Positions 11,368 to 54,855 are shown, counted from the stretch's first letter. The stretch: DNA of 64,000 bases from Candidatus Poribacteria bacterium (GCA_965205025.1 CBDBFU010000014.1:196041-260040), one strand, 5' to 3'. A program made the numbers and translations. Notes: generated by a model not told the origin, from the sequence alone.

Positions 11368-11541
11368 GATATGTTCCTCATATTTATTCTATTTGATTCG
11401 GTTTGGAAACCGAACCTATCGTTGTTTTTATTAAATTATAAGATGTGACATTCAATTCTTAGTATTTGATTACAATACAGTATAACATTATTCAGTAATA
11501 TTGATACAGTTTTCAACGTGACCTATAAATACTGGTTCATC

Positions 11542-13146: not shown

Positions 13147-13185
13147 GTTTGACGGAGAATTGTTAAAAGATTGCATGTTAAATAA

Positions 13186-13232
13186 ATAGCGGTAACTGAT
13201 GAATTGTGCTTCGGTTACCGCTTTCTTTTTAG
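13186..13232. terminator. bidirectional rho-independent terminator between convergent genes
   Basis: AGCGGTAAC...GTTACCGCT 9-bp stem followed by TTCTTTTT; A-rich on the other side. Confidence 0.55.
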
Positions 13233-13237
13233 TAATA

Positions 13238-15724: not shown

Positions 15725-15780
15725 ATTGTTCCTTGATTTATATCTATATTACATCCTATGTTTATTATGAATTCCTAAGA

Positions 15781-29737: not shown

Positions 29738-31714
29738 CTATTCAGAAGTGAGTCGTTTGATTCTGTCCTGTAGGAATTGGATTACTTGTTCAGCACTATG
29801 AATACCAAATGTTGATGCTTCGTCTAAGACTATCTGTATTAGAACATGATTATCTTCCAATGCTTTCTCAGCTTTACGGAAATACTCTATAGCTTTCTCT
29901 ATATCGTTGCTGTCCTGATACATGACTCCTAAGTAAATGTTTGCAGCAGCGAATCTGGGTGAATTGGGACGGTTTTTGATAAACCCTTCAAATGCATACC
30001 GAGCATCAGCGTAACGTTGGTCTTCATAATGTACTCTACCTATACGAAATTGTGCTCTATCAGCAAAACTATCATTATATCCACCAGGAAGATACAATTC
30101 ACGCTCTGGATAACCGATAGTCGTTTGATAGGCACGTAATGCTTCTTCATAACGTTGTAATCTTCGATAAATCTCCCCAACTTGATAGGTAGACATCATT
30201 GCCTGCAGTGTATTCTTATGTTGTTCTATCACAGTATTAAAAGTCTGAAGAGCTGTATTTGGTTTTTCAAGAACATCCGAATATATAACACCAATCCTGT
30301 AATATGCCTCAGCTGCATAAGTTGATTTTGGATTGTATTCAATTACCTTTCTATACCCATCTAATGCTTGCGAATAATCCAACAACTCACGTTCATAAAT
30401 CGTTGCAATTTGAAGCTGAGTTCTACTTTTTTCACCTATGTTTCGATTACTATCTGCAATATGTTCATTAAGCTTCTGTATAGTTGCCAGATGTTCATAG
30501 GATCGGAGTAACGAAGCAGCCTGTTTTGCATATTGGGTATCACGTTCATTGACAATTAAATCTCGTATAAGCGTTAATGCTTGATCATACTGACCATTAT
30601 CCCCATATCTATTGAGTCTATCGAATTTTTGTGAGGGGATCAGTTCTGTCAATGTATTTATCTTCTCTTGTAATAATTCATCCACTTCAGCAATACTTTT
30701 ATCGTACATGGCTACCTGTCCAAGATACATTGGATCAAGTGTAGGTAGGTATACGTGATGAAATATTTTATATGCATTTAATGCATTAGAATACTCTTGT
30801 AGTTCTTCATAACAAATACCTAATGAATAAAAGACTGCATGCATATTCCAGAAGTTCGGGTAATTGTCTACGATTGAATTGTATACTATTAATGCTTGTT
30901 TAAATTGTTTAGCATCTCTATGTAGATTCCCAATATGAAATAGACCTTCGGCAGCAAAATTACTTGTAGGATAATTCTGTGCGACTTTATGGTATTCAGA
31001 AATTGCCTGAGATAACTGATGTAAAGTTGTATGTCTTATATGAGCAATACGCCATTGAGCTTCAGCAGCTAATTTATCGTTTGGATGTTTTTCAAGTAAT
31101 TCTTGATATGTTTCAATAGCTTTTTCAGGTTGATTCAGTTGTGATTGTGTCCGATAAAGTTCTGCGATTTGAAAGAGAGCTACTACATGTATTGGTGTAC
31201 CTTTATATGTACGTAAAATCTCTCTTTGTATCATAAGATCTTTTAATGCCATGCGTATATCTCGGATTCGTTGTTGTCCGAGTTGATGAACAAACTGTGT
31301 ACTTGGAACCATATCAATCAGTGTACGAAAACTTGAAATAGCAAAATCATACTTACCCATCCGACTATATACATCACCTATCTTTATATATGCAAGAAGA
31401 ATCTCAGCGGTTGGTAAACCATCTGCTTCCATTTCAAGAATTGCTTTATATACATTAATAGCCTTAGGATATTGTTGTGTATAATTATAGTACAACTCTC
31501 CAAGTTGGTTGTAATATTGACTTCGTAATTCAACATTATTTGATTTCTCAACAAGTGTTTCTAACATTCTGATAGCATCTGTATACCTCTGCTGCTGAAT
31601 TAAATCCTTCACTTCCTCATTTTGGGCATTTGTTGGAGTTACAATGGAAATTTGCAGCACAAGAATACTGATTACATAAAAAAAATAGTTTGATATACTA
31701 TTTATCTTTTTCAC
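29738..31714 (-). CDS. secreted TPR-repeat protein
   Basis: 658 aa; signal 'ISILVLQISIVTPTNAQ'; numerous TPR units ('AEAQWRIAHI', 'AEGLFHIGNL', 'AEAYYRIGVIY'). Confidence 0.6.
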   Translation of the reverse strand: MKKINSISNYFFYVISILVLQISIVTPTNAQNEEVKDLIQQQRYTDAIRMLETLVEKSNNVELRSQYYNQLGELYYNYTQQYPKAINVYKAILEMEADGLPTAEILLAYIKIGDVYSRMGKYDFAISSFRTLIDMVPSTQFVHQLGQQRIRDIRMALKDLMIQREILRTYKGTPIHVVALFQIAELYRTQSQLNQPEKAIETYQELLEKHPNDKLAAEAQWRIAHIRHTTLHQLSQAISEYHKVAQNYPTSNFAAEGLFHIGNLHRDAKQFKQALIVYNSIVDNYPNFWNMHAVFYSLGICYEELQEYSNALNAYKIFHHVYLPTLDPMYLGQVAMYDKSIAEVDELLQEKINTLTELIPSQKFDRLNRYGDNGQYDQALTLIRDLIVNERDTQYAKQAASLLRSYEHLATIQKLNEHIADSNRNIGEKSRTQLQIATIYERELLDYSQALDGYRKVIEYNPKSTYAAEAYYRIGVIYSDVLEKPNTALQTFNTVIEQHKNTLQAMMSTYQVGEIYRRLQRYEEALRAYQTTIGYPERELYLPGGYNDSFADRAQFRIGRVHYEDQRYADARYAFEGFIKNRPNSPRFAAANIYLGVMYQDSNDIEKAIEYFRKAEKALEDNHVLIQIVLDEASTFGIHSAEQVIQFLQDRIKRLTSE

Positions 31715-31783
31715 AATAATACCTTGTTTCAGATGCCTTGTTTCAGATGCCTTGTTTCAGATGATTGTGTAGGATGGTATCAA

Positions 31784-32401
31784 TCAGAGTTCAGAATTAA
31801 CACTCTTGAGATGTTGATGTGCAACAATTGCCCAATCAGTGCCTTGTGCTTGATCTTTAACTCGATTCAGTTGACTAACTCTATCCCATTTATCGGAATT
31901 TCGTAGGTGTCGATTGCGGAGTACATCTTCCATATTGCGTTGTATCTCCTGATGCCTATACTCTTGTATCTTCAGATGTGCAGAATCAGTTACATTCTCT
32001 TCATAGGTTGACACATATTGAAAGGGATCAGTTAAAAGAAATGTAATTCCAATCACAGCAACAATAAACAGAGAAAATACTGCTGCTTTTTGTTGATATA
32101 TCAGAGTTAGTAGATTCGATACTCGTGCTGCTAAGTTTGAATGTTTTGTAGGTATAACTGTATTCTCAGCAGCGATGCGTTTGTAGAGTTTTGTCTGAAG
32201 GTTTTTTGGCATGCTAAGATTATGAGCGTAAACACCTTCAGCGTCATCAACAAGTTGAAGCACACGTTTATAGGAATTGACCATTCTTGTGCATTTATTA
32301 CAAGTCATTAAATGTACCTTATAATTATCCATTTTAGATGGATCAAATTCACCAAATACATAGTCAATAGCATGCGCCTCAGACATATTACATTTGGGCA
32401 T
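31784..32401 (-). CDS. zinc-finger (HxxxCxxC) anti-sigma factor with a single TM helix
   Basis: 'HLMTCNKCTRMV' ZAS-like motif near the N-terminus; TM 'AAVFSLFIVAVIGITFLL'; immediately downstream of, and co-directional with, the ECF sigma gene. Confidence 0.6.
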   Translation of the reverse strand: MPKCNMSEAHAIDYVFGEFDPSKMDNYKVHLMTCNKCTRMVNSYKRVLQLVDDAEGVYAHNLSMPKNLQTKLYKRIAAENTVIPTKHSNLAARVSNLLTLIYQQKAAVFSLFIVAVIGITFLLTDPFQYVSTYEENVTDSAHLKIQEYRHQEIQRNMEDVLRNRHLRNSDKWDRVSQLNRVKDQAQGTDWAIVAHQHLKSVNSEL

Positions 32402-32412
32402 ATAATTACCTC

Positions 32413-33006
32413 CTATATTTCATTGTTTTCCATTAATGGTCTTAATAGAGTCTGTAATTTCTTCATTGCACGGTGTAAATGAATTTTAACTGTTCCTTCC
32501 GCCATACCTAAAGTTTCTGCTACTTCTCTAATTGGTAAACCTTCATATCGAGTTAGCATAAATACTTCTTTTTGCTTTGATGAGAGTTCGTCCACAGCTT
32601 CACGAATAATACGTCCACGTTCAATATCTTCAACTTGTTTTTCGGGATTACTTGATAAATCTGTTGCTACGAGTTTTGTTTCTAATACCTCTTCATCTTC
32701 CAACACATAGACTGGATGTCGAGACTTAGACCTATGATAATCAATTGAAAGATTTGATGCAATGGTATATAACCAAGTTGAGAATTTTGCTTTCGGTTCC
32801 CATGAAGATAAAGCACGATAAGCTTTAAAAAAGACTTCAAGTGTTAGTTCTTCGGCATCTTCATAATTTCTTACTGATCGTAGGAGATAACCAAAGATTT
32901 TACGTTCATAACGTTTCATCAATTCATCAAATGCTCTTTGGCTTCCTGATTGGAATTGTTTAACGAGTATTTCATCATCTATTAATTTGTCCATATTATG
33001 TGCCAA
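32413..33006 (-). CDS. ECF (sigma-70 family group 4) RNA polymerase sigma factor
   Basis: Region 2 'FSTWLYTIASNLSIDYHR'; region 4 'FMLTRYEGLPIREVAETLGMAEGTVKIHLHRAMKKL'; 197 aa. Confidence 0.85.
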   Translation of the reverse strand: MAHNMDKLIDDEILVKQFQSGSQRAFDELMKRYERKIFGYLLRSVRNYEDAEELTLEVFFKAYRALSSWEPKAKFSTWLYTIASNLSIDYHRSKSRHPVYVLEDEEVLETKLVATDLSSNPEKQVEDIERGRIIREAVDELSSKQKEVFMLTRYEGLPIREVAETLGMAEGTVKIHLHRAMKKLQTLLRPLMENNEI

Positions 33007-33226
33007 TCTTTCGTTTTGATTCCATCATCATATTCATTTAACGGATAAGGGAATAATTAAGTTTACAGTATTTCCTTTTCATAAAGTAATTCTAAATTGG
33101 CAATTTGTGCTTCGATTTCAAGTATGGGTATAAATACATTAAAAACTGAAACATAATTAATTGTGTGGAAATATATTTGTAGTTTGGATAAAATAAAATT
33201 AGATGATTTTATTCGGAGGTATTAAG

Positions 33227-34258
33227 GTGGCAACTACACATAAAAATCCTCAAGGATCACCGTTAGTAATTCCTGCATCGGAAACCGCAGAAAATATGGT
33301 GAAAGTAGCAGTGGATTTTTTGGATGGATTACCAACAGAATTACGAGAGAAAGCATCTGAACCGTTTGACGGTAATGAAAGATTCCGTTGGCATTACATT
33401 CCTATTGAAATGTGGGAACGTCAAGGTGTATCATTACAGGAGTTGGATAGTAAACAAAAGGAATTAGCTTTTGCACTTATGGAAAGCGGTTTGAGTGCAA
33501 AAGGATATGAAAAAGCTCAAGCAATTATTAATTTAGAAACAACACTTGGTGAGATAGAAAAAGCGTCAGGAGATGGGAAACTTGAACGAAATCCTGAATA
33601 CTATTTTTTTACAATCTTTGGTGATCCAACTGGAAATGGGGCATGGGGATGGCGTACAGAAGGACACCATATTTCATTGAATTTTACAATTGTCAATCGA
33701 GAGCTTATTTCACCGAATCCTTTTTTCTTTGGGTCTAATCCTGCAGAAGTTCTACAAGGTGATAAAAAAGGACTACGAGTTCTCTTAGCTGAAGAAGATC
33801 TCGCACGTCAACTTCTCACAAGTTTTACACCGTACCAAAAGACTAATGCAGTTATAGATACGGAGGCACCATCAGATATACTCACAAGGAATGCTCCGAA
33901 AGTAGAGTTTGATGCTGTAGAGGGATTAGCTGTAGAAACAATGGAAACACATCAACGGGAACTGTTGATGCAGCTTCTTAATGAGTATATTGATAGGCTT
34001 CCTGATGAGATGGCTGAGATTGAACGACGAAAATTACGTGAAGGGAGTTTCAACGATATTCACTTTGCATGGGCTGGTGGAGAGGAAAGAAGAATGCCAC
34101 ATTATTATCGATTACATAGTCCATTCTTCTTCGTGGAATATGATAACACACAGAATGATGCCAATCATATCCACTCAGTATGGCGTCATATTGAAGATGA
34201 TTTTGGTGGGGATTTGCTTCGATTACACTACCATAAATCTAAACATCATAGTCATTAG
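33227..34258 (+). CDS. conserved hypothetical protein (possibly DUF3500-like)
   Basis: Track ORF 33203..34258; GTG 33227 follows GGAGG at 7 nt. Motifs 'WHYIPIEMWERQG' and 'WGWRTEGHHISLNF'. The family assignment is a recollection, not verified. Confidence 0.4.
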   Translation: MATTHKNPQGSPLVIPASETAENMVKVAVDFLDGLPTELREKASEPFDGNERFRWHYIPIEMWERQGVSLQELDSKQKELAFALMESGLSAKGYEKAQAIINLETTLGEIEKASGDGKLERNPEYYFFTIFGDPTGNGAWGWRTEGHHISLNFTIVNRELISPNPFFFGSNPAEVLQGDKKGLRVLLAEEDLARQLLTSFTPYQKTNAVIDTEAPSDILTRNAPKVEFDAVEGLAVETMETHQRELLMQLLNEYIDRLPDEMAEIERRKLREGSFNDIHFAWAGGEERRMPHYYRLHSPFFFVEYDNTQNDANHIHSVWRHIEDDFGGDLLRLHYHKSKHHSH

Positions 34259-34272
34259 TATTGACAAAAAAC

Positions 34273-34303
34273 AAAAAAGCCACCAAAAAGGTGGCTTTTT
34301 TGT
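34273..34303. terminator. bidirectional rho-independent terminator
   Basis: AAAAAAGCCACC-AAAAA-GGTGGCTTTTTT: perfect stem flanked by an A-run and a T-run, between convergent genes. Confidence 0.8.
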
Positions 34304-34328
34304 TTGTCATCTATATTCTATACAAAGA

Positions 34329-35186
34329 TTATTTAACGGATTTAATTGTACTCCAGGTAGTGGCTAATTTACCTGCGGGTTCAACTGGGGTAGGAGTGTT
34401 TGAGCTAAGCACAACGAGTCCAGTCTTTTCAGGATTTTTCCCATAGACAACAGCATGGGGGTACCAACCATCCCATCCCTTTTGTCCAGTTTGTCCGCCA
34501 CCCTTATCACCATCATTAACACAAATACCTAATCCAATTTCAAGTCCTGCAGTAAGTGAAATTGAAAGTCCAAAATTTGCAGGTGTGAATTTGAACTCAT
34601 AATATGTCTTCTTAGCGCCTTCATCTCTGACAATAGCAACATCATCTGCTTCGAGTCCAGGAGCACCATTGGTTCTTTCATTCTGTAGAAGGATATCTCC
34701 GTTATCATGTAGTCCAACGTTATAAAGAAAGAATGGTTGTCCACCAGCACGATTCCCACTCGGAACAACAGATAGTTGAGCACCATCACCATTCCAAGCA
34801 GCACCCGCAGCATGTTCATGTTCGTCATCTGTGACGCTTAGTGCCAGATATACTGCATCCGGATTCCAAGCAATCATGAAACATGTTGTATGATCATCAG
34901 CATCATTCCAAACACCTGTTTGGTATGTTTCAAATGTCTTTATGACACCACCGTTAGCTTCGAATTCAAGACCACAAAACGGAGAACCATCGGTACCAGT
35001 GACAGCGTCCATGACACCATCCCATTCATCAAGTTTACCGTCAATGGTCACATCTAATCCAGTAACAGCATTGTATACATCATGAGTTTCACTACGCCAT
35101 TGCGCATCTGCTATGTTTAATGTAAACAGGACTACGAAAATAGTAGTCATAATAAAAACGTATTTTTTCATAAAAGATTTCCTCAA
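34329..35186 (-). CDS. secreted CBM9/DOMON-like carbohydrate-binding-type protein, paralog 1 (C-terminal motif KLATTWSTIKSVK)
   Basis: Signal peptide MKKYVFIMTTIFVVLFTLNIADA; 'IDGKLDEWDG' (CBM9-like DGxLDExxW), 'DDEHEHAAGAAWNGDGAQL', 'GLGICVNDGDKGGGQ'. About 55% identical to the adjacent paralog. Confidence 0.55.
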   Translation of the reverse strand: MRKSFMKKYVFIMTTIFVVLFTLNIADAQWRSETHDVYNAVTGLDVTIDGKLDEWDGVMDAVTGTDGSPFCGLEFEANGGVIKTFETYQTGVWNDADDHTTCFMIAWNPDAVYLALSVTDDEHEHAAGAAWNGDGAQLSVVPSGNRAGGQPFFLYNVGLHDNGDILLQNERTNGAPGLEADDVAIVRDEGAKKTYYEFKFTPANFGLSISLTAGLEIGLGICVNDGDKGGGQTGQKGWDGWYPHAVVYGKNPEKTGLVVLSSNTPTPVEPAGKLATTWSTIKSVK

Positions 35187-35337
35187 TACAGAATTGACCT
35201 TAGGTCGTTATTTTGGTTAGTAGATTTGAAATTACATTATTAATATTCATTATGATATTTCTTCTTATGAAAGAATATCATCGTTTATTTATAGTAAATA
35301 AGTATTAGGCTTACTAATACTTATTTCAGACTAATAC

Positions 35338-36222
35338 TTATTTCAGGGATTTTATATTACCCCATGTGGTTGTTATTTTATTTATAGGATCAACGGCGAG
35401 GGTTTCATCTGTGAGAATTACCAAACCAGTTTTATCTGGATTTTTCCCATGGACAATAGAATGTGGATACCAACCTGACCAACCTTTTTGCCCACCTTGT
35501 CCAGCTGCTTTATCTCCATCGTTAACACATATTCCAAGTCCAAATTGTAACCCTTCTTTAAATGGATCTTTATACCCTAAATTATCTGGTGAAATTCTAA
35601 ATTCATAGTATGTCTTCTTTTTTACTTCATCACGTACAATTACAACATCTTCACCTCCAACAAGACCGGGATTCCCACGGGTTGTTTCATTTTGGAGTAA
35701 TAGGTTTTTGGCATCATCAGACAATCCAGCATTATAGAGTATATCGGTTCTGGCAGGTTGACGTTTCCCAGTAGGTTCAAAAGCGAGTTGTGCACCATCA
35801 CCATTCCATGCTGCTCCTGCTGCATGTTCATGTTCATCATCGGTGACATCCAAAGCAAGATAGACATACTCTGGGGTCCAAAGAATCATAAAACATGTTT
35901 CATGGTCGTCCGGACCTTTCCAATTTCCACCACCGTGTGCTTCAAAAACACCTTGTTCATTTTTAATGCCGCAGAAAGGTTTTCCATCAGTTCCTTTAAC
36001 TGCATCTAAAACACCATCCCAATCATCAAGATTTCCATCTATTTTTATGTCGGTGTCTGCTTGAAGAGCATTATATTTGTCATGTGTTGCATGCCGCCAT
36101 TGAGCATTTACTGATACACTTGTTATGAAAAATAATAGAATTATTATGTATGTAGACTTTCTCATTTCTTTATCTCCTATTTCAGATATATCTTTAAATA
36201 TATATAAGTATAACCTAAACAA
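35338..36222 (-). CDS. secreted CBM9/DOMON-like protein, paralog 2 (C-terminal motif KITTTWGNIKSLK)
   Basis: Signal 'IIILLFFITSVSVNA'; the same conserved blocks as 34329..35186 ('IDGNLDDWDG', 'DDEHEHAAGAAWNGDGAQL', 'GLGICVNDGDKAAGQ'). Confidence 0.55.
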   Translation of the reverse strand: MFRLYLYIFKDISEIGDKEMRKSTYIIILLFFITSVSVNAQWRHATHDKYNALQADTDIKIDGNLDDWDGVLDAVKGTDGKPFCGIKNEQGVFEAHGGGNWKGPDDHETCFMILWTPEYVYLALDVTDDEHEHAAGAAWNGDGAQLAFEPTGKRQPARTDILYNAGLSDDAKNLLLQNETTRGNPGLVGGEDVVIVRDEVKKKTYYEFRISPDNLGYKDPFKEGLQFGLGICVNDGDKAAGQGGQKGWSGWYPHSIVHGKNPDKTGLVILTDETLAVDPINKITTTWGNIKSLK

Positions 36223-36272
36223 AACCTAATAATTAAACGATTTTAACAGTGATTTATTTATTGAAAGTACTG

Positions 36273-37802
36273 TTAACGGTCTTCAAATGATCCAGCACCC
36301 TTGTCTCCACCTAAACAAAAGACATACCGTCCACTTGAACCAATGTATAGATTGCCATTAGCAATTACGGGTGAAGAAATGAACTTTAATCCATTTGAAA
36401 CAGAATTAGCATCATATATCCACTCAATGTCACCATCAGATAGATCCAGTGAGAATATTCTCCCGTCATAAGTTGCAGCGTAAACTGATTGTTCTGTTAC
36501 GGCTGGGGATGAAGCTACAACGGCATTTAGATCCACACTCCAATTTAATTCTCCATCTAAAGCACTGAGATTATAAACATGTCCATCTTTGGAACCAAAT
36601 ATCACCTGTTCGTTTTTAACGCAAATTGCTGACATCACAGCATCCCCAACTTCATATTCCCAAACTTTTTTACCGGTTTCCATATTTAATGCAATTACAC
36701 TACCTTTTGGAATTGGTGCACTTTCTGAAAAATTACCTCTACCGAGTCCAAAATAGATAATGTTGTCATAAGAACTTGGGCTACCCCAAACAGGATAGGC
36801 AGTGGGTGTAGACCAGATTTCCTTCCCCGTCATAGCATCTAAGGCATAGGTACGATATTCACCATAACCTGTACCAAAATAGACCTTCCCATCTTTAACT
36901 ATCGGTGCCATATCTGCATGAACAGCAGGAAAATGCCAAATCTCTTCACCTGCCAGAGCATCTAAACAATACACACCATCTCCACCAGCCGTAAAATAAA
37001 GTCTCCCTTGAATAATATATGGTGTGGATTCTACGTGACTTGCTGTCTTAAAACTCCAAATGGGATCACCTGTATTAGCATCAAGACAGCGGAGTCTACA
37101 CCCAGTATCATAGTGATAGCCTTCACCAATATATACCCGTCCTGCAACAACTGCTGGAGATGATATGATAGGGATATCAGAATCATGTTGCCAAATCAAC
37201 TTATTCGTTTCTATATCAATACAGTAAGTAGCACCGCTAACAGATAAGATCGCTCCATGTGTCGCACCTATAAATAGACGATTCCCAACTATTGCAGGTG
37301 ATGATGAGAGTTCTACTGCCATAGCTTCTTTGGATTTAAATATCCAATTAATGTTATTCGTTAAGGGACCAGGTAGATCGTCTAAATGTCCTGTACGATT
37401 AGCATTACCTCTAAATGTTGGCCAGGATTGTGTGTTGGTTACTAATTCTGTTTTCGATTTCTCAGGTTCTACTGTTATAGGGGGAGTTGGCTTGACATTC
37501 CTACCTACAAGTTGAAAGGTTAACACAGCTAAAATAACTAAAACTAAGATACTAATTAGTGAACCTATTTTGTTGGCGAAAACAAAATTACGTAGTCTAT
37601 AGAATAACATCTTTGTCGTATCACGTGCAAAAACAAGACTGGTTACGACAGCGATTCCAACAAAAGCAAGAATTTGAGGTATTATACTAAGTAGTGCAGA
37701 AAGAGGACCCAGTAGCTGGGGAATGACTGCATAAGCAGATGCTGTAAAACAGAAGAAAACTGAAACGATTATCAAAGGTATAAGTATTCTAATTCTGTTC
37801 AT
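36273..37802 (-). CDS. membrane-anchored PQQ-like beta-propeller repeat protein
   Basis: 2-3 N-terminal TM helices, then repeated 'G.(L/V)Y(F/I)G...G..Y(C/A)(L/I)D' units typical of PQQ/BamB-type propellers. Confidence 0.6.
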   Translation of the reverse strand: MNRIRILIPLIIVSVFFCFTASAYAVIPQLLGPLSALLSIIPQILAFVGIAVVTSLVFARDTTKMLFYRLRNFVFANKIGSLISILVLVILAVLTFQLVGRNVKPTPPITVEPEKSKTELVTNTQSWPTFRGNANRTGHLDDLPGPLTNNINWIFKSKEAMAVELSSSPAIVGNRLFIGATHGAILSVSGATYCIDIETNKLIWQHDSDIPIISSPAVVAGRVYIGEGYHYDTGCRLRCLDANTGDPIWSFKTASHVESTPYIIQGRLYFTAGGDGVYCLDALAGEEIWHFPAVHADMAPIVKDGKVYFGTGYGEYRTYALDAMTGKEIWSTPTAYPVWGSPSSYDNIIYFGLGRGNFSESAPIPKGSVIALNMETGKKVWEYEVGDAVMSAICVKNEQVIFGSKDGHVYNLSALDGELNWSVDLNAVVASSPAVTEQSVYAATYDGRIFSLDLSDGDIEWIYDANSVSNGLKFISSPVIANGNLYIGSSGRYVFCLGGDKGAGSFEDR

Positions 37803-37824
37803 TATTAGATCCCTCGTTATAATG

Positions 37825-38991
37825 TCATTTTATAGTTGCCACAGCAAAATGTATAAGGTTTTCAAGCATATAGCGATTCTTTGCAGCTTTTTCTTTACTA
37901 TTATTATGTAGGTTCGTTATCAGATACATACCTTTCCCATGTCGCAATTTAGCAACAACAATTTCCTTTCCATTGTTTGTTGTTGCAAGTATCTCAAATC
38001 TATCATTCCAACCGCTCCATGAATCATCAAGGGCAAGTTGTCCAGAACGAATACGGTGTGGTGTCTTAAATAATGAACCTGCTAAAGATGTGGACTTGAA
38101 ATCATTTCTGTGATTACTTTCAACCCCATTCAATTTATGTGGTAACCAACCAGTTTTACAAGGATTATCATCATCGCTGTCTTGTCCCGAAACAATGACA
38201 ATACCACCATTTTTTACAAATTCTTTTATTTTTTTCTCTTGATTGTCATTAAGCCTGTACCTCCCATCACGTCCAATAGATCTACATCCAATCCATAATA
38301 TTTCAGCATTACTGAGTCCAGGCAAATTACGATCAGTTGTTTGATGATAAGAAATCCATTGCTTATCTACTTTATTTATCTCCGAGATAATTGGAATTTC
38401 TGCCTGATATCTTTCATCATGAAAAAGATGTAACTGTATAGCATTTTTACCAAGCATCGCATTGAGTTCTTTTTGGAATTCTTGGGTTGAATCTCTTCGT
38501 GTGACTTGGTCTTTATTAAAGTATTTCTCAAAGTGTGTGAATCCCCACCAACCCCATTTTCCATTCTGTCTTGTGACTTGGGTTTGAAACCATTTTCCTC
38601 TTGTGTGTGCAAGACTATCAATTCTTCTATCATTTTTTAAATAAAAGATAATAATTGGTTCATCCACTTTTAGAAATTTGCTAATTTGGTCTCTGTGATC
38701 TTCCTCACCTTTATATACGTCAAACCTGATTTTGATCTCTTTGAAGTCACTTTTTCCTTTTAAATACTTCTCTACATTTACTGTGGCATTTTTTCGCTTA
38801 GTATTAACTTCTTTGACTGTGCCAAAAAGGACATTACTGCTTTCACCAATGATTTGGGGTACAGTATAACGCTTTGTAATATAAGCATTAGCGTTATTCT
38901 GTGAAAAGAGTAATGTAATTAGACATACTGCTATTAAATATAATAGAAATCTGTAATATGATAGTTTAGTATACTTACTTAATATATGCAC
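37825..38991 (-). CDS. hypothetical membrane-anchored protein; the C-terminal half is possibly a class-I glutamine-amidotransferase-like fold
   Basis: N-terminal TM 'FLLYLIAVCLITLLF'; 'KEFVKNGGIVIVSGQ' and 'GKGMYLITNL' vaguely ThuA/DJ-1-like; no confident family. Confidence 0.3.
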   Translation of the reverse strand: MHILSKYTKLSYYRFLLYLIAVCLITLLFSQNNANAYITKRYTVPQIIGESSNVLFGTVKEVNTKRKNATVNVEKYLKGKSDFKEIKIRFDVYKGEEDHRDQISKFLKVDEPIIIFYLKNDRRIDSLAHTRGKWFQTQVTRQNGKWGWWGFTHFEKYFNKDQVTRRDSTQEFQKELNAMLGKNAIQLHLFHDERYQAEIPIISEINKVDKQWISYHQTTDRNLPGLSNAEILWIGCRSIGRDGRYRLNDNQEKKIKEFVKNGGIVIVSGQDSDDDNPCKTGWLPHKLNGVESNHRNDFKSTSLAGSLFKTPHRIRSGQLALDDSWSGWNDRFEILATTNNGKEIVVAKLRHGKGMYLITNLHNNSKEKAAKNRYMLENLIHFAVATIK

Positions 38992-39075
38992 GGCATGTCT
39001 CCTGTAATATCTATATAGTGTGGAATAAAGTTATAGGTTATTAGAAGGTATGTTGGTAATAAATGGTAAATTAAT

Positions 39076-39396
39076 TTAGTCTAACTTCACAGCAGTACCA
39101 GTAGCTGTCACCATTAACATGCCATTACTACTTCCAAGTACCTGATAATCTATATCAATTCCTACTATTGCATCTGCATTCTGTTGTGATGCGATCTGTT
39201 CCATTTCCCGAATTGCAGTTTCACGTGCCTCGGTTAACTTACTCTCATAAGCTTCTGATCTCCCACCGATCATATCAGTTATACCCGCAAGAAAATCACG
39301 GACGATATTCGCACCCATAATTGTCTCACCAGTTACCAATCCCATGTATTCCACGATTTGTCTGCCTTCAATCGAATTTGTTGTCGTCGTAATCAT
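39076..39396 (-). CDS. YbjQ/UPF0145-family protein
   Basis: '[27 protein letters not shown]' is characteristic of YbjQ. Start taken at the internal ATG 39396, whose A is shared with the stop of the upstream gene (TAATG overlap). Confidence 0.7.
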
Positions 39397-40505
39397 TATT
39401 GTGCCTTCCCTCTTGCAGCGATATCCCAACAACATACTACAATGTTGTCTCGAATTCCATAAGACTTGTCATGTAAATTTACGGTAGTGCAACAATGTGT
39501 AGGTAATATTTCAAACTTATCTCCAGGTTTTAAGTTAATATCACCATTGGATACTTCAATTTTTCCATGTTCCTCGGAAAGTCCTACCAATTCAAGATTG
39601 GAAAAACCAATTGGTTGTGGATTGCCAAACTCAGTTGTCAGTACTTTCATTCCTGAATCTACAATAATACGATTCTGTTGGGGTCGACTTACAACTGTGG
39701 TAAGTACGGATAAAGCGTAATCGAATTTCTCACCTATTCCTTCTACTCCACTGTATGTTGAATCCATAAATACATACGAGCCTGCCTGTATTTCAGTCAT
39801 TTCAGGGATACGACTTGTTATATCAAATGTACCGGTTCCACCACCGCTCATTATATTTACAGGGATACCATTATTTTCAAGAAGATTCTTGGATTCAACC
39901 AAGTGTTGCATATCATTTTTTACTGCTTTTTCTCTATCAGCGCGCTCTGTTCTCGCTACTATATGACCTTCATACCCCATCAATCCTTCAAATTCTAAGT
40001 TTGGACTCTTACAAATCTGCTGTGCTAATTCAAGGGTAGGTTGTCCTGGTTCAACTCCACAACGGTTCATACCAATGTTAACTTCAATTAGAATCCTGAC
40101 TTTTACTCCTTTTGACTTTGCAGCATCAGAGATATTCTGCACATTATCGGAGTTATCAACTGCAACCATGATTTCTGATCGAGCTGCAAGGTTGATAAGT
40201 CTTTCTATTTTTTGGACACCAACTATCTGATTGGCAATCAGAACATCATGAATTCCTGTATCAACAACTGCTTCTGCTTCACCTAATTTTGCACATGTAA
40301 TTCCAATTGCACCAGCATCCAACTGTTTCTGAGCAATAATTGGGGTTTTATGTGTTTTTAGATGTGGTCTGAGATCTGTAGAAATACCAGAAAAATAATC
40401 CGCCATATTCTGGATATTACTTTCCAATATATCCAGATTAATTAATAGTGCTGGGGTATCTAATTCAGTCTTGTGTTTTCCAAGAAATGATTGAGTATCT
40501 GACAT
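39396..40505 (-). CDS. alanine-racemase-fold PLP enzyme (D-serine dehydratase DSD1 / D-threonine aldolase-like family)
   Basis: 'RPHLKTHK' PLP-lysine motif near the N-terminus; 369 aa; C-terminal beta-domain. Confidence 0.55.
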
Positions 40506-40515
40506 CTTCGTTCAG

Positions 40516-41469
40516 TTAAAGTTGTTTTACAGGATTTGATAATGTTCCGAAACCATCAATTTCTATTTTTACAATATCTCCGGCAGCCAAGGGAAGGTCG
40601 TTAGGTACGATTATACCTGTACCAGTTGTAACCACTGTTCCAAAGGGTATAGGGTTATCCCGCATCAGGAACTCAGAAAGTTGTTCAAATTTCCAATTAA
40701 TTTGTGAAGTATTAACTTCTCCTACGTATAATTCTTTTTCATCTCGAAGAATAGTACATTTCATCTGAAGGTTGTATGGATCATCCACTTCAGAAGTGGT
40801 TACAAACATTGGACCCAGCGCACAACAGCCAGCATATACTTTCGATTGCGGTAGGTATAACGGGTTGTCGCGTTCAATATCCCAGGCAGAGACATCATTG
40901 CAGAGAGTATAACCTAATATCTCACCATCCATACCAAGTATATATGCAAGTTCTGGTTCTGCTGCTGTAAGATTTGAATCACTACGTATACCTATATATC
41001 CGTTAGGTCCAACGCATCGAGGCGGTGTCGCTTTGAAAAATATCTCAGGTCTATCTGCATGATATACACGACTGTATATATCTTGTTCACTATCATCATC
41101 CCGCATATCAGCACTACGTTTATATGTAACACCACATCCCCAAACCTCAGGTGAATCTATGGGCGACAATAGATAGGGTAAATCATCTGCTGGTGAAATA
41201 TTTAACTTATCTAAGGTTAAACCCCCATCTTCTGATGATTCGGCTTCAGGTATCGGGTTTGTGGGAAATCTGATTGGTTTAGGTGTTGAAGTCTGTTCCT
41301 GTATATCTGCAAGCAATACACCTAAACTAACTCGTTCTTTATTAGCAAGTTCAAGAATTTCTAACACACCAGGTGATTCATCGCTTGTAACATCTATTAC
41401 TTCATTCTCACGGGTAACAATTCCTACACGTTTTCCTATACTTGGCAGATGAAATTGGATTAGTTTCAT
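40516..41469 (-). CDS. fumarylacetoacetate hydrolase (FAH)-family protein
   Basis: C-terminal 'TGTGIIVPNDLPLAAGDIVKIEIDGFGTLSN' is typical of the FAH fold. Confidence 0.65.
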   Translation of the reverse strand: MKLIQFHLPSIGKRVGIVTRENEVIDVTSDESPGVLEILELANKERVSLGVLLADIQEQTSTPKPIRFPTNPIPEAESSEDGGLTLDKLNISPADDLPYLLSPIDSPEVWGCGVTYKRSADMRDDDSEQDIYSRVYHADRPEIFFKATPPRCVGPNGYIGIRSDSNLTAAEPELAYILGMDGEILGYTLCNDVSAWDIERDNPLYLPQSKVYAGCCALGPMFVTTSEVDDPYNLQMKCTILRDEKELYVGEVNTSQINWKFEQLSEFLMRDNPIPFGTVVTTGTGIIVPNDLPLAAGDIVKIEIDGFGTLSNPVKQL

Positions 41470-41579
41470 GATACTCCGAACAAACAGTTATAAACATAAA
41501 GGTAATTAAAATACCATTTAACAAACTTTATATGTAACAAACTTTATATGCCGTATATTTAGACCTGTTTTTATATAAC

Positions 41580-42194
41580 CTATGATGAAGGAACCAGTAA
41601 TGATTTCTCAAGATATAATACGACTTCTTGGGCGGATTCAAGGATATCCAGTTGTGACGTGTCAATGACAACTTCTGCGTTATTAGGAGCTTCGTAGGGG
41701 GCACTGATACCAGTAAATTCCTTAATCTCACCTGAACGGGCTTTCTTATATAGTCCTTTTGGATCACGTTGTTCGCACACATCAAGAGGACAATCCACAT
41801 ATACTTCAACAAATCTATTTTCTGTTAGAAGGTCTCTTGCTTGATCTCGATCTGCGCGGTAAGGAGAAATAAATGCAGTCATGACAATTGTGCCAGCATC
41901 TACAAATAATTTTGCAACTTCTCCTACTCGTCGTATGTTTTCTTCTCTATCTTCTGGAGAAAAACCCAAATTCTTGTTTAATCCATGTCGAACATTATCA
42001 CCATCTAATACATAGGTATGGTGATTGCGTTCGTGTAATAGATGTGCTACTGTGTTTGCTAACGTTGATTTTCCTGATCCTGATAGTCCTGTAAACCAAA
42101 TTACACAACCCTTTTGGTTGAGTAGTTCCTCTCTATCTTCCATAGAGACAGTCATTTCATGCCATGTAATATTAGTTGCTCTCTGTTCTGCCAA
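41580..42194 (-). CDS. cysC: adenylyl-sulfate kinase
   Basis: '[17 protein letters not shown]...[18 protein letters not shown]' P-loop plus the APS-kinase N-terminus; 204 aa. Confidence 0.9.
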
Positions 42195-42730
42195 TCGATT
42201 TTCCCTCGTAAAATATTAAATTATTGCATGCAATATACATTATATAGTTGTCCTTATAATCACATCCTGTATAAATACATTTGATGTATAAGTATACCAG
42301 ATAGAATAGCGAAGTGCAAACTATATTTGAGAGTATTCAATATTTAACGAACTTAGTTACAACGCAGTGTACTATTAACATTTAGTGTTTTACATTTCAC
42401 ATACCCGTCCCGTTTGGGTTCAATTCTAAGACTTTCTGATACCTGAAAACTTCAAAGGTATGAGGGAACTCCTATTCCCAACTACAAACAGGCCACAATT
42501 CGGAGATCGCTCTTACATATATGAACATTTATGAAATGCAACAAAACTGCTGTCTAACTGATACAAAACGATACTAAGTAAATAATATTACTTGAATTTC
42601 GAATTATTGGTTTAGTTGTAATTAAATATGGTTATTTTGGCTTCTATTTTAATTTGGTTTTATAGATATATCATGTTATTATTTATTAACTATATAAGCA
42701 AGATATTATTATGTCATTTTGGAGGTATTT

Positions 42731-43195
42731 ATGGCAGAAAAAGGAAGCGCAGCTCCAGATTTTACTTTATCAGGATCAAATAATCAAGATGATACGGAAG
42801 TTTCATTAGGTGATTATAAAGGGAAGAAATTAGTAGTTTTATTTTATCCCCTTGATTTCTCACCAGTGTGTTCGGAACAGGTCCCCGATTTCAATGAGAA
42901 TTTAGAAGCAATTAGAGCAAAAGGTGCTGACGTAGTTGCTATAAGTCGAGATTCAACCTTTGCACACAAAGCATGGAGTGAAACCCTTGGTGGTGTAGAT
43001 TTTCCACTCCTTTCAGATATGAATCTTGAAGTATCAAAGAAATTTGGAATGGCACTTGAAGAAGTAGGTATTACAACTCGAGGTGTATTTATAATTGATC
43101 AATCTGGAAATATAGCATTTAAACACGTTGAAGATGCACCACCAGATAATACATTGACTGCTAAACAGGTTGTTGAAGAACTTGATAATTTGTAG
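42731..43195 (+). CDS. peroxiredoxin (AhpC/TSA / Bcp-type)
   Basis: 'FYPLDFSPVCSEQ' peroxidatic-Cys motif; ATG 42731 preceded by GGAGG. Confidence 0.85.
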   Translation: MAEKGSAAPDFTLSGSNNQDDTEVSLGDYKGKKLVVLFYPLDFSPVCSEQVPDFNENLEAIRAKGADVVAISRDSTFAHKAWSETLGGVDFPLLSDMNLEVSKKFGMALEEVGITTRGVFIIDQSGNIAFKHVEDAPPDNTLTAKQVVEELDNL

Positions 43196-43398
43196 GTCTT
43201 GCTACATCATGATAGGAAGGGATGGGTAATCTTAATTATCCGTCCTTTCTATATAGTCCACATACGACTTTATCAGAGAGTAGTATAATTCTAAAACTTC
43301 AGTCACATCCTGTCTTTAAACACCTATTTTATTATCTTTTCTATACTATCTATTTCTTGACAATCCACCCATGATATGGTATAATTCCTATGATGGGT

Positions 43399-43470
43399 GC
43401 GGGTGTAGCTCAGCGGTAGAGCATCAGCTTCCCAAGCTGAGGGTCGCGGGTTCAATTCCCGTCACCCGCT
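43399..43470 (+). tRNA. tRNA-Gly (anticodon CCC)
   Basis: Manual fold: acceptor GCGGGTG/CACCCGC, D-stem GCTC/GAGC, anticodon stem TCAGC/GCTGA with loop TTCCCAA, T-arm GCGGG-TTCAATT-CCCGT; CCA not encoded. Confidence 0.8.
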
Positions 43471-43498
43471 TGTAAGTCATAAAATCATTGAGGATATC

Positions 43499-44647
43499 AT
43501 GTCACAAAAAAGACGTATAATGAATGAAGAAATAAAACAAGAGGATAAGTTTATTGATCTTGTTTTTGCATGTTATTCATTCATAAAAGACAATGCTAAG
43601 ATAATTACGATTGTTACTGCAGTGGTAATTGTTGGAGTTGTTGGGTATATTGTCTATAATCAGAATCAGGAAAACACTTACGCTAAGGCATCCGCCCATT
43701 ATTCTGAAGCAATCACTACATATAAAGATGCAGAGAAAGATTTCTTAGACACATCTGCACCCACTGATGAAACTGAAAATAAGGAAGAAACTGAAAAACC
43801 TACATTTCCTGAAGCCGAAGAAAAACTTAAGGCGTTTTTCCAGAAATATCCTAATACTATATTTGCAGATAAAGCACGTTACCAATATGCCAAAAGTCTA
43901 TATTATCAAGAAAAATATCCTGAGGCACGGAATGAATTTCAGGTAGTAGTGGACAATCATAAAGCAGAAAATGAACTTATTGCATTGTATGCACAAAAGG
44001 CTATTGGCAACTGTTACGAACAAGAGAAAAACTACACTAAAGCAATTTCCGCCTATGAAGCAAATTCATTTCCGACAACCTCGAATCTCTCTACACAAAT
44101 TAGACAGTATGTCATAACTGGTGCAAAATTCAATCAAGCTCTCTGTTATGAAAAGCTCAATGAAATTGAAGATGCTAAAGTCGCATATCAAGATGTTATT
44201 GACGAATTTGAAAAAACAATACAGTCTGGTTTAGATCAGAAAAGTCATGATTTACTCAATCATGCAAAAGATGTAATCAGTGTTATTGAAGATTCAATAG
44301 ATCTAACACAAGCCACAAAATTAGAGACTGATGAGCTTTTCTTTGATGCACTTATAGCCTATACAGATGTAATACGGGATTACAAGGTATCAAAGGATAT
44401 TAGCCATGGGTTGCCAAAAGATATTCGTAAACGCATCAAAATTTACGAAGATTTAGCAACATCCTTTATTAAAAATGTACAATTAGCAAAGGAAGCAGAA
44501 AAAAATGAAAACCATAGTTCTGCATTGAATAGTTACAATCGAATTACAAACCTAACAGATTTAGGATTAAATAGAAATGTTTATGAACGCGCTCATCTGA
44601 ATTATGACCGTCTAAATCTTTCAGCACAAGTGGTGTCAAATGAATAA
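43499..44647 (+). CDS. membrane-anchored TPR-like protein (YbgF/CpoB-like architecture)
   Basis: TM 'IITIVTAVVIVGVVGYIVY' near the N-terminus, then TPR-like 'YQYAKSLYYQEKY', 'GNCYEQEKNYTKA', 'ALCYEKLNEIEDA'. Confidence 0.5.
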   Translation: MSQKRRIMNEEIKQEDKFIDLVFACYSFIKDNAKIITIVTAVVIVGVVGYIVYNQNQENTYAKASAHYSEAITTYKDAEKDFLDTSAPTDETENKEETEKPTFPEAEEKLKAFFQKYPNTIFADKARYQYAKSLYYQEKYPEARNEFQVVVDNHKAENELIALYAQKAIGNCYEQEKNYTKAISAYEANSFPTTSNLSTQIRQYVITGAKFNQALCYEKLNEIEDAKVAYQDVIDEFEKTIQSGLDQKSHDLLNHAKDVISVIEDSIDLTQATKLETDELFFDALIAYTDVIRDYKVSKDISHGLPKDIRKRIKIYEDLATSFIKNVQLAKEAEKNENHSSALNSYNRITNLTDLGLNRNVYERAHLNYDRLNLSAQVVSNE

Positions 44648-45647
44648 TTCAAGCTATAATATAATACAAACAAAAGTAAGAAATGCAATTTCATTAACTA
44701 TATTTTGTGTATTGCTGATTTTTCCACTGAATGTTTACGCTCAACCACAAGGTAGAATTGCGTATGCCGTATCTGGATTCAATGACAAAGTAGGTAGATT
44801 AGATTTTAATCTCCATATGACAACTTTCACACCAGATGGGGATTATAAGACCCTACCCTTAAACCAAACAGGAATGTATCCTGCTTGGGGACCAAAAGGG
44901 GATACTCTCTACTTCATTCAGCGCGCTGCCACCCAATCAGATGTATATTCAATAGATATCAATAACCCAAGGAATAAAACGAAACACACCCCTATTAGTG
45001 GGACATACAGATTCCTTGCAGTATCACCAAATGGTAAGAAGTTGGCATTTAACGGCTGGACAAATGAACAAAAACAACAAGACAACCAGATTTGGGTACT
45101 TGATATTGCTTCCGGTGAAATGGAAGTGATGACACAAATTCCTCATTTTGGTAGATCCTTCTTTTTTTGGGGCATTACTTGGTCACCAAATAGTAAACAA
45201 CTTGCCTTCTCTCTGGAAAGATCAGGTGGTTTAGATCAATTATACATATTAGATACTGAAACAAAAGAGATTGATATATTAACAGAACTAAATATTGATT
45301 TATATCCGGTATGGGCACCAGATGGGAAGAGTATTTTGTTCCGCAGATGGAATAGGGAATTTGATACCTTAACTACTATTGATGTTGAGACACGAGCCAT
45401 CAAACCTTTATTTGATGTTGATAAATTTACAGGTATGTGGACAGATTGGTCGTTTGACGGACAACAAATTATCTATTCTCGTTGGGGTGTTTTTTATCTT
45501 CATAATCTTGAAGATGGAAAGACTGAGCAATTGTTTGAAATTGAAGGTAGTATATTTGTGATTTCATGGTGGAAACATGAGGTATTACCTGTGGCACCAC
45601 GAGAAAAATTAGCTACCACATGGGGAACTGTAAAACAAAGGAATTGA
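44640..45647 (+). CDS. secreted TolB-like (PD40/WD40-like) beta-propeller protein (C-terminal motif KLATTWGTVKQRN)
   Basis: Signal 'ISLTIFCVLLIFPLNVYA'; repeated 'SP(N/D)GK.LAF' PD40-like units; 8-nt overlap with the upstream TPR gene. Confidence 0.55.
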   Translation: MNNSSYNIIQTKVRNAISLTIFCVLLIFPLNVYAQPQGRIAYAVSGFNDKVGRLDFNLHMTTFTPDGDYKTLPLNQTGMYPAWGPKGDTLYFIQRAATQSDVYSIDINNPRNKTKHTPISGTYRFLAVSPNGKKLAFNGWTNEQKQQDNQIWVLDIASGEMEVMTQIPHFGRSFFFWGITWSPNSKQLAFSLERSGGLDQLYILDTETKEIDILTELNIDLYPVWAPDGKSILFRRWNREFDTLTTIDVETRAIKPLFDVDKFTGMWTDWSFDGQQIIYSRWGVFYLHNLEDGKTEQLFEIEGSIFVISWWKHEVLPVAPREKLATTWGTVKQRN

Positions 45648-53634: not shown

Positions 53635-54855
53635 ATGAAAAAAACTACCCTTCCTATTCTGATAGGGATCGCTGTATACACACTCCTGTTTTCCCCATTT
53701 TCGCAACCCACGGATGCACAATTACAAGATCAATTTGGACAAGATCTACAACAGCTTGTGCCACCAACCCCACCAAAGACTGATACAGCTAAACTCACTA
53801 TTGATCCAAATATAACAAATACCTTTAATAATCACATTGAGCTTGGATTGAGTGTTGACCCATACACAAGTAGTCTTGCTGGGCAAGAAAATCCACAGCT
53901 AATTGGGTTAATAAATCGGTTTGGTGTAAACTTTCAAGGTGATTTACCGATTGTAGATAAGAAATTGATGCTAAAATTATCTTATTCTCCGCAATATGAA
54001 AACTATAATGGAGCAGAAGGAAAACTTGATGAATTTGATGCATTTACAGACAGGTCTCTCACTGAGTTAAGCTATAGTCCATTTTCAAATTCTCCTGAAA
54101 TTACATTTTCACACAACCTTAAACGTCTGAAACGAACATTACCTGTCTATAATAATACTGATCGTCAGATAGGACTAAGGTTCGGTCGTTTATTTGAATA
54201 CAACTTTCGTATTCATAGATTTGATGATGAATCTGAACTAAGAGAGGATTTCCTTCTTATTGGTTCAACCAGCCATAGAGCAACAACCCGTTTACAGTTT
54301 GGTTTACTCAGACAGATGATTGGAAAGGTTGAGTATTCGATTGAAAATGCCCGATACCAGACAAATCTAAATAATCTAATATTAGGTATTTCTGGTCTGG
54401 AAGAAGGGGAAATAAGGGGTGATTGGAGACATGCTGGTAGTATAGAATTGTTACAGGTAATCACGAAACGAATTGTATTTCAGGAAGAGGTTAACCTATT
54501 TAATAACCGTTCTAATGTAGATTTTTTTAATTTTCAAAGCACAGAAGCTGCATTTAGTACATTCTATAAGTTAGATACAGAAGATTGGGTTCGAATACGC
54601 CTTTCTCGGCTTTGGGTCGTTTTTGAACACAGAGGAATACGGGATGCAGAAGGTGCTATTATGGAGAATGCAGGAAATCGGAGTGATAGACAATTCAGTA
54701 TAAATACACAAACAAATTGGCAATTCTACGATAATATCTCACTAAATTTAGATTACAAATATACCTATAATGATTCGAATCAGATTGATCCGTTATACAG
54801 TTTTTTAGACTATCAACATAGTATATTAAGCGTAACATTACGCGGTAGTTATTAA
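53635..54855 (+). CDS. putative outer-membrane beta-barrel protein
   Basis: Signal 'LPILIGIAVYTLLFSPFSQPTDA'; alternating amphipathic strands; C-terminal aromatic end '...LRGSY'. Confidence 0.45.
   Translation: MKKTTLPILIGIAVYTLLFSPFSQPTDAQLQDQFGQDLQQLVPPTPPKTDTAKLTIDPNITNTFNNHIELGLSVDPYTSSLAGQENPQLIGLINRFGVNFQGDLPIVDKKLMLKLSYSPQYENYNGAEGKLDEFDAFTDRSLTELSYSPFSNSPEITFSHNLKRLKRTLPVYNNTDRQIGLRFGRLFEYNFRIHRFDDESELREDFLLIGSTSHRATTRLQFGLLRQMIGKVEYSIENARYQTNLNNLILGISGLEEGEIRGDWRHAGSIELLQVITKRIVFQEEVNLFNNRSNVDFFNFQSTEAAFSTFYKLDTEDWVRIRLSRLWVVFEHRGIRDAEGAIMENAGNRSDRQFSINTQTNWQFYDNISLNLDYKYTYNDSNQIDPLYSFLDYQHSILSVTLRGSY

Follow-up and report, generated by a model that had tools for sequence, protein, structure and literature searches.

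A short C-terminal peptide of Sec-exported Poribacterial proteins as a candidate undescribed sorting signal

Three open reading frames (ORFs) within a 64,000-nucleotide stretch of a Candidatus Poribacteria bacterium genome (GCA_965205025.1 CBDBFU010000014.1:196041-260040; hereafter the window) encode proteins which appear to be secreted and which end in closely similar peptides centred on the residues T-T-W. A first-pass annotation of the DNA had singled out this C-terminal tail, or tag, and the translations bear it out, the C-termini reading PVEPAGKLATTWSTIKSVK (34329..35186, minus strand), AVDPINKITTTWGNIKSLK (35338..36222, minus strand) and PVAPREKLATTWGTVKQRN (44640..45647, plus strand). 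A six-frame regular-expression scan of the 64 kb located TTW[GSA] at these three places only, each TTW exactly 10 residues before the stop; in all three ORFs K[LI][AT]TTW[GS]x[IV]K is followed by three residues. The genes, their tags and their N-termini are as follows.

34329..35186, minus strand: gene 1, secreted CBM9_1-like protein of 285 residues (Pfam CBM9_1, E=1.1e-7)
34332..34388, minus strand: tag of gene 1, PVEPAG-KLATTWSTIK-SVK, 19 codons (K codon from 34370; stop 34329..34331)
35103..35186, minus strand: N-terminus of gene 1, signal-peptide-like (…FTLNIADA-QW; translation and heuristic)
35338..36222, minus strand: gene 2, secreted CBM9_1-like paralog, ORF of 294 residues (Pfam CBM9_1; likely true start Met20 at 36165)
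35341..35397, minus strand: tag of gene 2, AVDPIN-KITTTWGNIK-SLK (DNA pattern match 35350..35379)
36100..36165, minus strand: N-terminus of gene 2, signal-peptide-like (MRKSTYIIILLFFITSVSVNA-QW; translation)
44640..45647, plus strand: gene 3, secreted six-bladed TolB-like PD40 propeller of 335 residues (Pfam PD40)
45588..45644, plus strand: tag of gene 3, PVAPRE-KLATTWGTVK-QRN (pattern match 45606..45635)
44640..44741, plus strand: N-terminus of gene 3, signal-peptide-like (…LLIFPLNVYA-QP; translation, with a helix at residues 3-31 in an AlphaFold2 (AF2) model)

Genes 1 and 2 are paralogs, as originally described, with 57% identity between their proteins and a Pfam CBM9_1 match in each. The product of gene 3 is, again as described, an unrelated TolB-like propeller: it matches PD40, its closest structural relative by Foldseek is the TolB propeller (TM-score 0.70, ~21% identity), and its similarity to the gene 1 protein is confined to the tail region. 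All three N-termini are basic, then hydrophobic, and reach an AxA-type site (ADA-QW, VNA-QW and VYA-QP), judged by eye rather than with a dedicated predictor, which agrees with the Sec signal peptides attributed to them. Two copies of the motif match a degenerate DNA pattern encoding K-[LI..]-[ATV..]-T-T-W-G-x-[IVM]-K, against 0.00 expected from 100 shuffles of the window; the pattern demands G after W, and the TTWS copy of gene 1 is therefore not matched.

We ran the same pattern against one genome each of 185,579 bacterial and archaeal species (596 Gb), in which about 13 matches would be expected by chance (our arithmetic, with equal base frequencies assumed). At least 118 loci contained a match. 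Among the matches listed, 107 loci are labelled Poribacteria, nine belong to unclassified metagenome-assembled genomes (MAGs), and one each is labelled Pseudomonadota and Deltaproteobacteria; each of the 130 matches listed keeps the reading frame, with a stop codon 11-22 codons downstream. At least 41 of the 118 listed loci contain more than one tagged gene, and the window holds three in 64 kb. A profile of doubled tails retrieved 81 short fragments (28-77 residues), the named ones all from Poribacteria, which were uninformative as to new cargo classes. Judged from the matches listed, the tail is nearly specific to the phylum Poribacteria.

One unclassified MAG (SRP200020_co5_420, CAYYPK010000012.1; locus L048) has a GC content of 64.7%, compared with 34.5-55.2% in Poribacteria-labelled loci. 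It encodes a Kelch protein which ends …AEKLTTTWGAMKRR and adjoins several PD40 paralogs, and from this locus we judge that the tag may reach an unnamed related lineage. The sole non-Poribacterial labels among the matches listed, Pseudomonadota (RHO2_bin_21, L021) and Deltaproteobacteria (L050), are attached to metagenome bins and may reflect mis-binned Poribacterial contigs; the former bin derives from a sponge and has two adjacent tagged genes of otherwise unique families.

The tails share the consensus φ-[AP]-V-[ED]-P-x-[GD]-K-L-[AT]-T-T-W-[GAS]-x-[IVLM]-K, followed by 1-12 residues (mode 3). The conserved unit is thus longer than the 13 residues first assigned to it, and takes in an upstream [AP]-V-[ED]-P element. 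Within the core, T+4 and W+5 are conserved at 100% and T+3 at 97%, while the flanking K residues reach 95% and 98%. Positions left unconstrained by the pattern are also conserved: V at -5 (95%), A/P at -6 (79%), P at -3 (66%), G/D at -1 (64%) and E/D at -4 (58%). Arg makes up 25% of the residues which follow the motif, and their net charge averages +0.84. Information content inside the motif is only 0.04-0.15 bit at third codon positions, as against 2 bits at first and second positions, the DNA 3' of the stop is not conserved, and the tail is retained in loci spanning 34-65% GC. Near-random third positions over so wide a range of base composition indicate selection on the peptide and not on the DNA, and the codon-position information also led us to discard a DNA-level element. 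At +6, directly after W, the residue switches among G, S and A between genes of the same genome and even of the same locus, as in the window itself and in adjacent genes of many loci. A single recognition factor tolerant of small residues at this position therefore fits better than lineage-specific variants.

The proteins which carry the tail are diverse. When signal peptide and tail are set aside, the 110 complete tagged ORFs fall into 17 clusters with no detectable mutual similarity, so that the tail is not confined to one paralog family. The largest cluster, with 72 members, matches Laminin_G_3; the remaining Pfam assignments comprise F5_F8_type_C, 3keto-disac_hyd (DUF1080), CBM9_1, PD40, Kelch, DUF4960 and, in a protein of 1,611 residues, LTD with He_PIG, giving about 10 families in all. 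Matches to a Sialidase-like carbohydrate-binding module (CBM) are weak and sub-threshold, several clusters are without any Pfam match, and NCBI names the carriers hypothetical proteins. The enrichment for signal peptides, proposed as a check in the first-pass annotation, is pronounced: a hydrophobic N-terminal region is present in 140/141 tagged ORFs (99%) compared with 191/442 untagged neighbours (43%; Fisher p=3e-40), and a lipobox-like site in only 3/141. Given this, and a median length of 266 residues, the typical carrier is a small, Sec-exported, non-lipidated binding module without any other anchor.

One larger Poribacterial carrier (P0212 / P0367, 455 residues) combines an N-terminal region of ~200 residues with a CBM9-like domain and the tag, and is annotated by NCBI as a cohesin-domain protein. 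Together with dockerin-bearing proteins, it hints at a cellulosome-like assembly whose scaffold would be anchored by the tail.

No model of Pfam (2025) or NCBIfam 20.0 (June 2026) matches the tail, bare tails of 37-38 residues having been searched at E≤10, and the bare tails match no PDB sequence. Neither TIGR02595 (PEP-CTERM) nor TIGR04174 (IPTL-CTERM) recognizes the tails, TIGR02595 not even at E≤10, and the motif is not described in the literature searched. The initial impression that this is no known tag is therefore sustained, and the relatives of the CBM9-like carriers lend it weight. An exhaustive HMMER search with the CBM9-like protein of the window returned 502 representatives at E≤0.001, and C-termini were compared in the best 150. 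Among these best 150 of 502, Poribacteria-type members end directly after a ...GLVxL... boundary in the TTWG tail or in diverged forms of it (KLATSWGAIK, KLTVSWGSLK, KFTITWGEIK and KATVLWGALK, the last from a hot-spring MAG labelled Poribacteria). Other CBM9-like homologues have, at the same point (…GLxTL…), VPEP followed by a hydrophobic helix and RRR, or, in one case, VPTVSEWG and then a helix. NCBIfam detects PEP-CTERM (TIGR02595) above cutoff in six of the homologous proteins and also finds IPTL-CTERM (TIGR04174), and these matches serve as a positive control for the NCBIfam and Pfam negatives on the tail. Bona fide sorting signals thus evolve exactly where Poribacteria place the tail.

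Conservation of the tail is equally evident in the propeller family. All 85 full-length homologs recovered for the gene 3 protein (P0001-P0085, 53-95% identity), as well as the fragment P0086, carry the tag, in the form LPVEPxxKL[AVT]TTW[GS]x[IVL]K and then 2-7 variable residues; those with a source name are all from Candidatus Poribacteria. The tagged propeller looks like a conserved ortholog, single-copy status aside. An AF2 model based on a 65-sequence alignment has a mean pLDDT of 86.6, with values >90 in the propeller and <50 at residues 315-335, where a short low-confidence helix spans residues 328-331. In the same alignment L316, V318, P320, K323, L324, T326, T327, W328 and K332 are invariant or nearly so. 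The tail is thus predicted to be disordered rather than packed on its own domain, and such strong conservation in a region predicted to be disordered typifies a short linear motif bound in trans. We considered, and dismissed, a velcro strand which closes the propeller: the tail is left unmodelled by AF2 and also occurs on non-propeller folds. A single-sequence AF2 model of the CBM9-like protein was uninformative (pLDDT 35).

Directly upstream of the propeller gene lies a further gene which bears on how the tail might be read.

43499..44647, plus strand: membrane-anchored TPR_21 / YbgF-like TPR protein (Pfam TPR_21, E=1.3e-12; NCBIfam tol_pal_ybgF, 44 bits, below cutoff)

This gene overlaps the propeller gene by 8 nt, for which reason the two probably form one, translationally coupled operon, and the pairing, overlap included, is also found in three other Poribacteria genomes (L001, L064 and L110). 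The gene order peroxiredoxin, TPR, propeller, MutS2 is conserved in these three, and a fourth locus (L053) has the propeller and MutS2 part. The propeller protein is without the N-terminal domain of TolB, and its top Foldseek matches include TolB-colicin peptide complexes. The TPR-propeller pair may represent a reduced Tol-Pal-like or YfgM/BamB-like module. It could also be part of the tag-reading machinery, by analogy with some type IX components which carry their own signal; TolB propellers bind disordered Trp-containing peptides, in keeping with the TolB-colicin matches, and the pair is on this basis a candidate reader. On the contig of a distant propeller homolog (P0097, tail …LLTTMWGEVKAP; L119), two large proteins (in 11099..16223) join sigma-70 regions 2 and 4 with Kelch or BNR-type β-propellers, and ABC-2 permeases follow them.

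The tail is also found outside cellular genomes. In 2.9 million viral contigs the DNA pattern had four hits, each of them the C-terminal tail of a LamG-like protein that also has a signal peptide; there were no false positives. One of these proteins (8629..9552 of IMGVR_UViG_3300032360_000003, L122) has a signal peptide and a tag ending …GLKIEPKNKLVTTWGEMKKWK, and is encoded on a contig of 66,974 bp in which PHROGs identifies a family-B DNA polymerase, a UvsX-like recombinase and a DnaB-like helicase. Close relatives of this LamG gene are present on the viral contigs L120, L121 and L123. The contig looks like a phage of low-GC Poribacteria which borrows the sorting tag of its host, and a tagged gene in such a setting argues that the tag is portable and read in trans.

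We regard the tail as a short linear C-terminal sorting or anchoring motif, nearly Poribacteria-specific and without a transmembrane segment, which is read by an envelope factor, and assign this reading a probability of roughly 0.6. It is supported directly by the C-terminal position of the tail, its association with signal peptides, its occurrence in unrelated families, the selection acting at the protein level and the taxonomic restriction, as well as by the positional equivalence with sorting tags, the predicted disorder and the capture by phage. The earlier proposal of an undescribed C-terminal targeting signal thus gains support from the unrelated carriers and the signal-peptide link, and neither the database models nor the literature searched provide a description of it.

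As we envisage it, Sec would export the protein and the N-terminal signal peptide would be removed, leaving a soluble periplasmic protein whose folded domain – in most cases a lectin-like or carbohydrate-binding β-sandwich, or a propeller – bears a flexible, exposed tail. The invariant T-T-W core, together with the flanking K…K, would then be read by one conserved envelope factor, which would either move the protein across the outer membrane or hold it at the outer membrane or cell surface. A tail without a membrane-spanning segment cannot work in the manner of LPXTG, PEP-CTERM, GlyGly-CTERM or MYXO-CTERM; as no membrane-embedded signal is present, recognition would be that of a soluble peptide, probably through docking as a β-strand or peptide, and cleavage near V-E-P might or might not follow. 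That the reader should be specific follows from the strict conservation, the many tagged proteins per genome, the swapping with known sorting signals and the phage-acquired tagged gene. A single receptor is inferred, as are its nature, a destination at the surface or at the periplasmic face of the outer membrane, and any cleavage of the tail at V-E-P.

Other accounts of the tail differ widely in plausibility. Were it non-functional – a chance similarity, an intramolecular strand, or a translated DNA repeat such as a mobile cassette or terminator – the frequent tandem arrays might explain its spread, as recombination within an array could copy 3' ends. However, window shuffles give 0 expected against two seen, 130/130 listed genomic and 4/4 viral matches are C-terminal and in frame, third codon positions are near-random and the 3' DNA unconserved, at least 17 unrelated families carry the tail, and AF2 leaves it unpacked, so that the chance, structural-strand and DNA-element readings are effectively refuted. 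Improbable, too, is a degenerate PEP-CTERM signal on which an exosortase-family enzyme still acts. While V-E-P resembles VPEP, basic residues follow the motif and true PEP-CTERM signals occupy the same position in CBM9-like homologues, the tail has no hydrophobic transmembrane stretch but some 10 mostly polar residues between VEP and the basic end; P at -3 is present in only 66% and E/D at -4 in only 58%, and TIGR02595, which matches those homologues, misses the tails at E≤10. A streptide-like K…W crosslinked peptide, a sortase LAXTG signal, a TonB box and an Lpp-like terminal-Lys attachment were all rejected on architecture, owing to the signal peptide and large folded domain, the missing transmembrane segment, the motif mismatch and the variable last residue.

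Two further explanations are a processing signal and a receptor-free anchor. The tail might be a processing or degradation signal, cut at or near V-E-P by a periplasmic endopeptidase or tail-specific protease which matures, activates or turns over the protein, without steering it to any location. The exposed and predicted disordered tail would suit such an enzyme, and [AP]-V-[ED]-P, three residues upstream of the core, is cleavage-site-like and recalls the PEP of PEP-CTERM. We nevertheless find this quite unlikely: most carriers consist of one small binding domain that has no evident reason to be activated, a degron on many secreted proteins has no clear benefit, the 1-12 residues up to the C-terminus are unfit for carboxylate-anchored (PDZ-type) recognition, and homologues bear sorting tags rather than propeptides at that position. 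The least unlikely of the alternatives, though still one we doubt, is a receptor-free peripheral anchor in which the cationic, Trp-containing segment K-L-x-T-T-W-G-x-I-K-x-x-R binds anionic lipid, lipopolysaccharide or peptidoglycan. The C-terminal amphipathic anchors of the periplasmic penicillin-binding proteins PBP5 and PBP6 are the model for this. The net charge (+0.84) and Arg content (25%) after the motif, the conserved flanking K (95% and 98%) and the invariant W are as such an anchor would require; by our inference L+1, W+5 and I+8 would share one helix face, AF2 places a low-confidence helix at residues 328-331, and no protein partner turned up in the neighbourhoods. Yet there are three hydrophobic side chains only, Thr and Gly are poor helix formers, and generic membrane binding would tolerate substitutions, whereas T+4 and W+5 remain at 100% and T+3 at 97% over hundreds of paralogs and 34-65% GC, with the upstream V-[ED]-P conserved in addition. 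This strictness, and the V-[ED]-P element, point to a stereospecific binding site.

The sorting motif is itself open to several objections. When all ORFs of the 118 listed loci were clustered, no receptor or processing enzyme was found in the gene neighbourhoods: no untagged family stands consistently beside the tagged genes, and no peptidase, Omp85-type or sortase-type neighbour occurs in these 118 loci. The recurrent neighbours, namely PhyH, GFO/IDH oxidoreductases, TPR, ASPIC/UnbV and sulfatases, are simply abundant Poribacterial families. The tagged TolB-like propeller, with its YbgF/YfgM-like TPR partner, looks periplasmic rather than surface-exposed, which argues against a pure export signal. 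We know of no other Sec substrates in didermic bacteria that are sorted by a peptide as short as ~20 residues and devoid of a transmembrane segment. Finally, the locus counts are lower bounds and the taxonomic range is read from the matches listed, while the signal peptides behind the figure of 140/141 were called by a crude, permissive heuristic and not by a trained predictor.

We see about even odds that the tail betrays a new Poribacterial envelope sorting system. A new receptor or transpeptidase would recognize AVEPxxKLxTTWGxIK as a soluble peptide, around a hundred lectin-like proteins in each genome would be served, and Poribacterial phages would exploit the system. The tagged TolB-like propeller with its TPR partner is a candidate for the receptor of this proposed system. 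Poribacteria are uncultured and dominant sponge symbionts, and their many LamG, CBM and propeller proteins are believed to act in glycan capture and in contact with the host, so that the route by which they are displayed bears on the biology of the symbiosis. As a near-specific marker, the motif can also flag Poribacterial contigs, predict the exported or displayed proteome and assign phages to Poribacterial hosts.

The surroundings of the tagged CBM9 genes in the window offer some further observations. The tandem pair is syntenic with a second locus (L038), where it is kept as a pair. Beside it lie a DUF3500 gene (33203..34258) and an ECF-type sigma factor (32413..33006), followed by a putative anti-sigma factor (31784..32401) and a secreted protein of 658 residues (29738..31714). 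The same block (window 29738..36222) recurs in L038, which suggests that it is under the control of an envelope-signalling sigma factor. Directly upstream of the pair and on the same strand (36273..38991) are a PQQ/BamB-like β-propeller with N-terminal hydrophobic segments (36273..37802) and a secreted protein of 388 residues with no Pfam or NCBIfam match (37825..38991). The intervening gaps being only 22-50 nt, these two genes may be co-transcribed with the tagged CBM9 genes.

Several known systems invite comparison with the tail. The signal recognized by BAM is the last β-strand of a barrel with an aromatic end, whereas the tail mostly ends in R, Q, K or D (F/Y in only 19/149) and its carriers are soluble β-sandwich or propeller domains rather than β-barrels; a putative outer-membrane protein of the window (53635..54855) has an ordinary end, …LRGSY. 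Ligands of PDZ domains and tail-specific proteases keep a fixed register to the carboxylate, while the motif is followed by 1-12 variable residues. TolB-box peptides are, like the tail, disordered, Trp-containing, Gly/Ser/Thr-rich and at home in the cell envelope. Their DG[ST]GW-like motif lies in N-terminal regions of colicins or Pal partners, and in the AF2 model of the propeller the tail is not docked onto the propeller. Encapsulin cargo-loading peptides, and the PTS1 peptides read by the TPR receptor PEX5, have the same format as the tail: a conserved C-terminal peptide of ~10-20 residues on a flexible linker, unrelated cargo and one receptor. The encapsulin motif, of the type L-T-V-G-S-L-K, bears a superficial likeness to the core T-T-W-G-x-I-K. 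However, encapsulin, microcompartment and PTS1 peptides act in the cytoplasm, whereas 99% of tail carriers have signal-peptide-like N-termini, and no encapsulin or TPR receptor is known to be linked to the tail.

The C-terminal domain of type IX secretion system (T9SS) substrates (TIGR04183 / TIGR04131) resembles the tail in that it lacks a transmembrane segment and marks the C-terminus of Sec substrates in didermic bacteria, with lectin-like or propeller proteins among its cargo. It is, however, a folded β-sandwich of 70-100 residues, as opposed to a tail of 17-22 residues with pLDDT <50 and no model match. Poribacteria encode such T9SS-type proteins as well, among them two WD40 proteins with a dockerin-like segment and the T9SS-type C-terminal domain (…NYPNPFNPETWIPF…VYFYTL…; L094, 701..2389, and L099, 1..2247), and no ORF in our sample has both this domain and the tail. 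T9SS-type C-terminal domains have been noted in Poribacteria before, T9SS genes not being found (Kamke 2014, PMC3909097). With the domains present and the type IX genes reported missing, the domain is a second orphan C-terminal module of Poribacteria besides the tail.

Close parallels are PEP-CTERM with its exosortase, IPTL-CTERM, LPXTG, GlyGly-CTERM and MYXO-CTERM, which, like the tail, sit at the extreme C-terminus of unrelated, Sec-exported and mostly lectin- or adhesin-like proteins. The PEP-CTERM group further shares with it a restricted taxonomic range and many carriers per genome, and the tail has a V-E-P element and a basic end. The difference lies in the absence of a transmembrane helix, the place of the hydrophobic stretch being taken by the polar T-T-W-G core, so that a membrane-embedded sortase-type enzyme could not read the tail in its usual way. 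Nor is the tail an LPXTG signal for sortase, since it reads L-[AT]-T-T-W-G, has no transmembrane helix and is matched by no NCBIfam model. C-terminal sorting tags have repeatedly led to new machineries, including sortase, exosortase, rhombosortase, the type IX system and myxosortase. The Poribacterial tail is a new instance of this well-known kind; as it is without the transmembrane segment of sortase-type signals, and far shorter than the type IX domain, machinery of another sort probably reads it.

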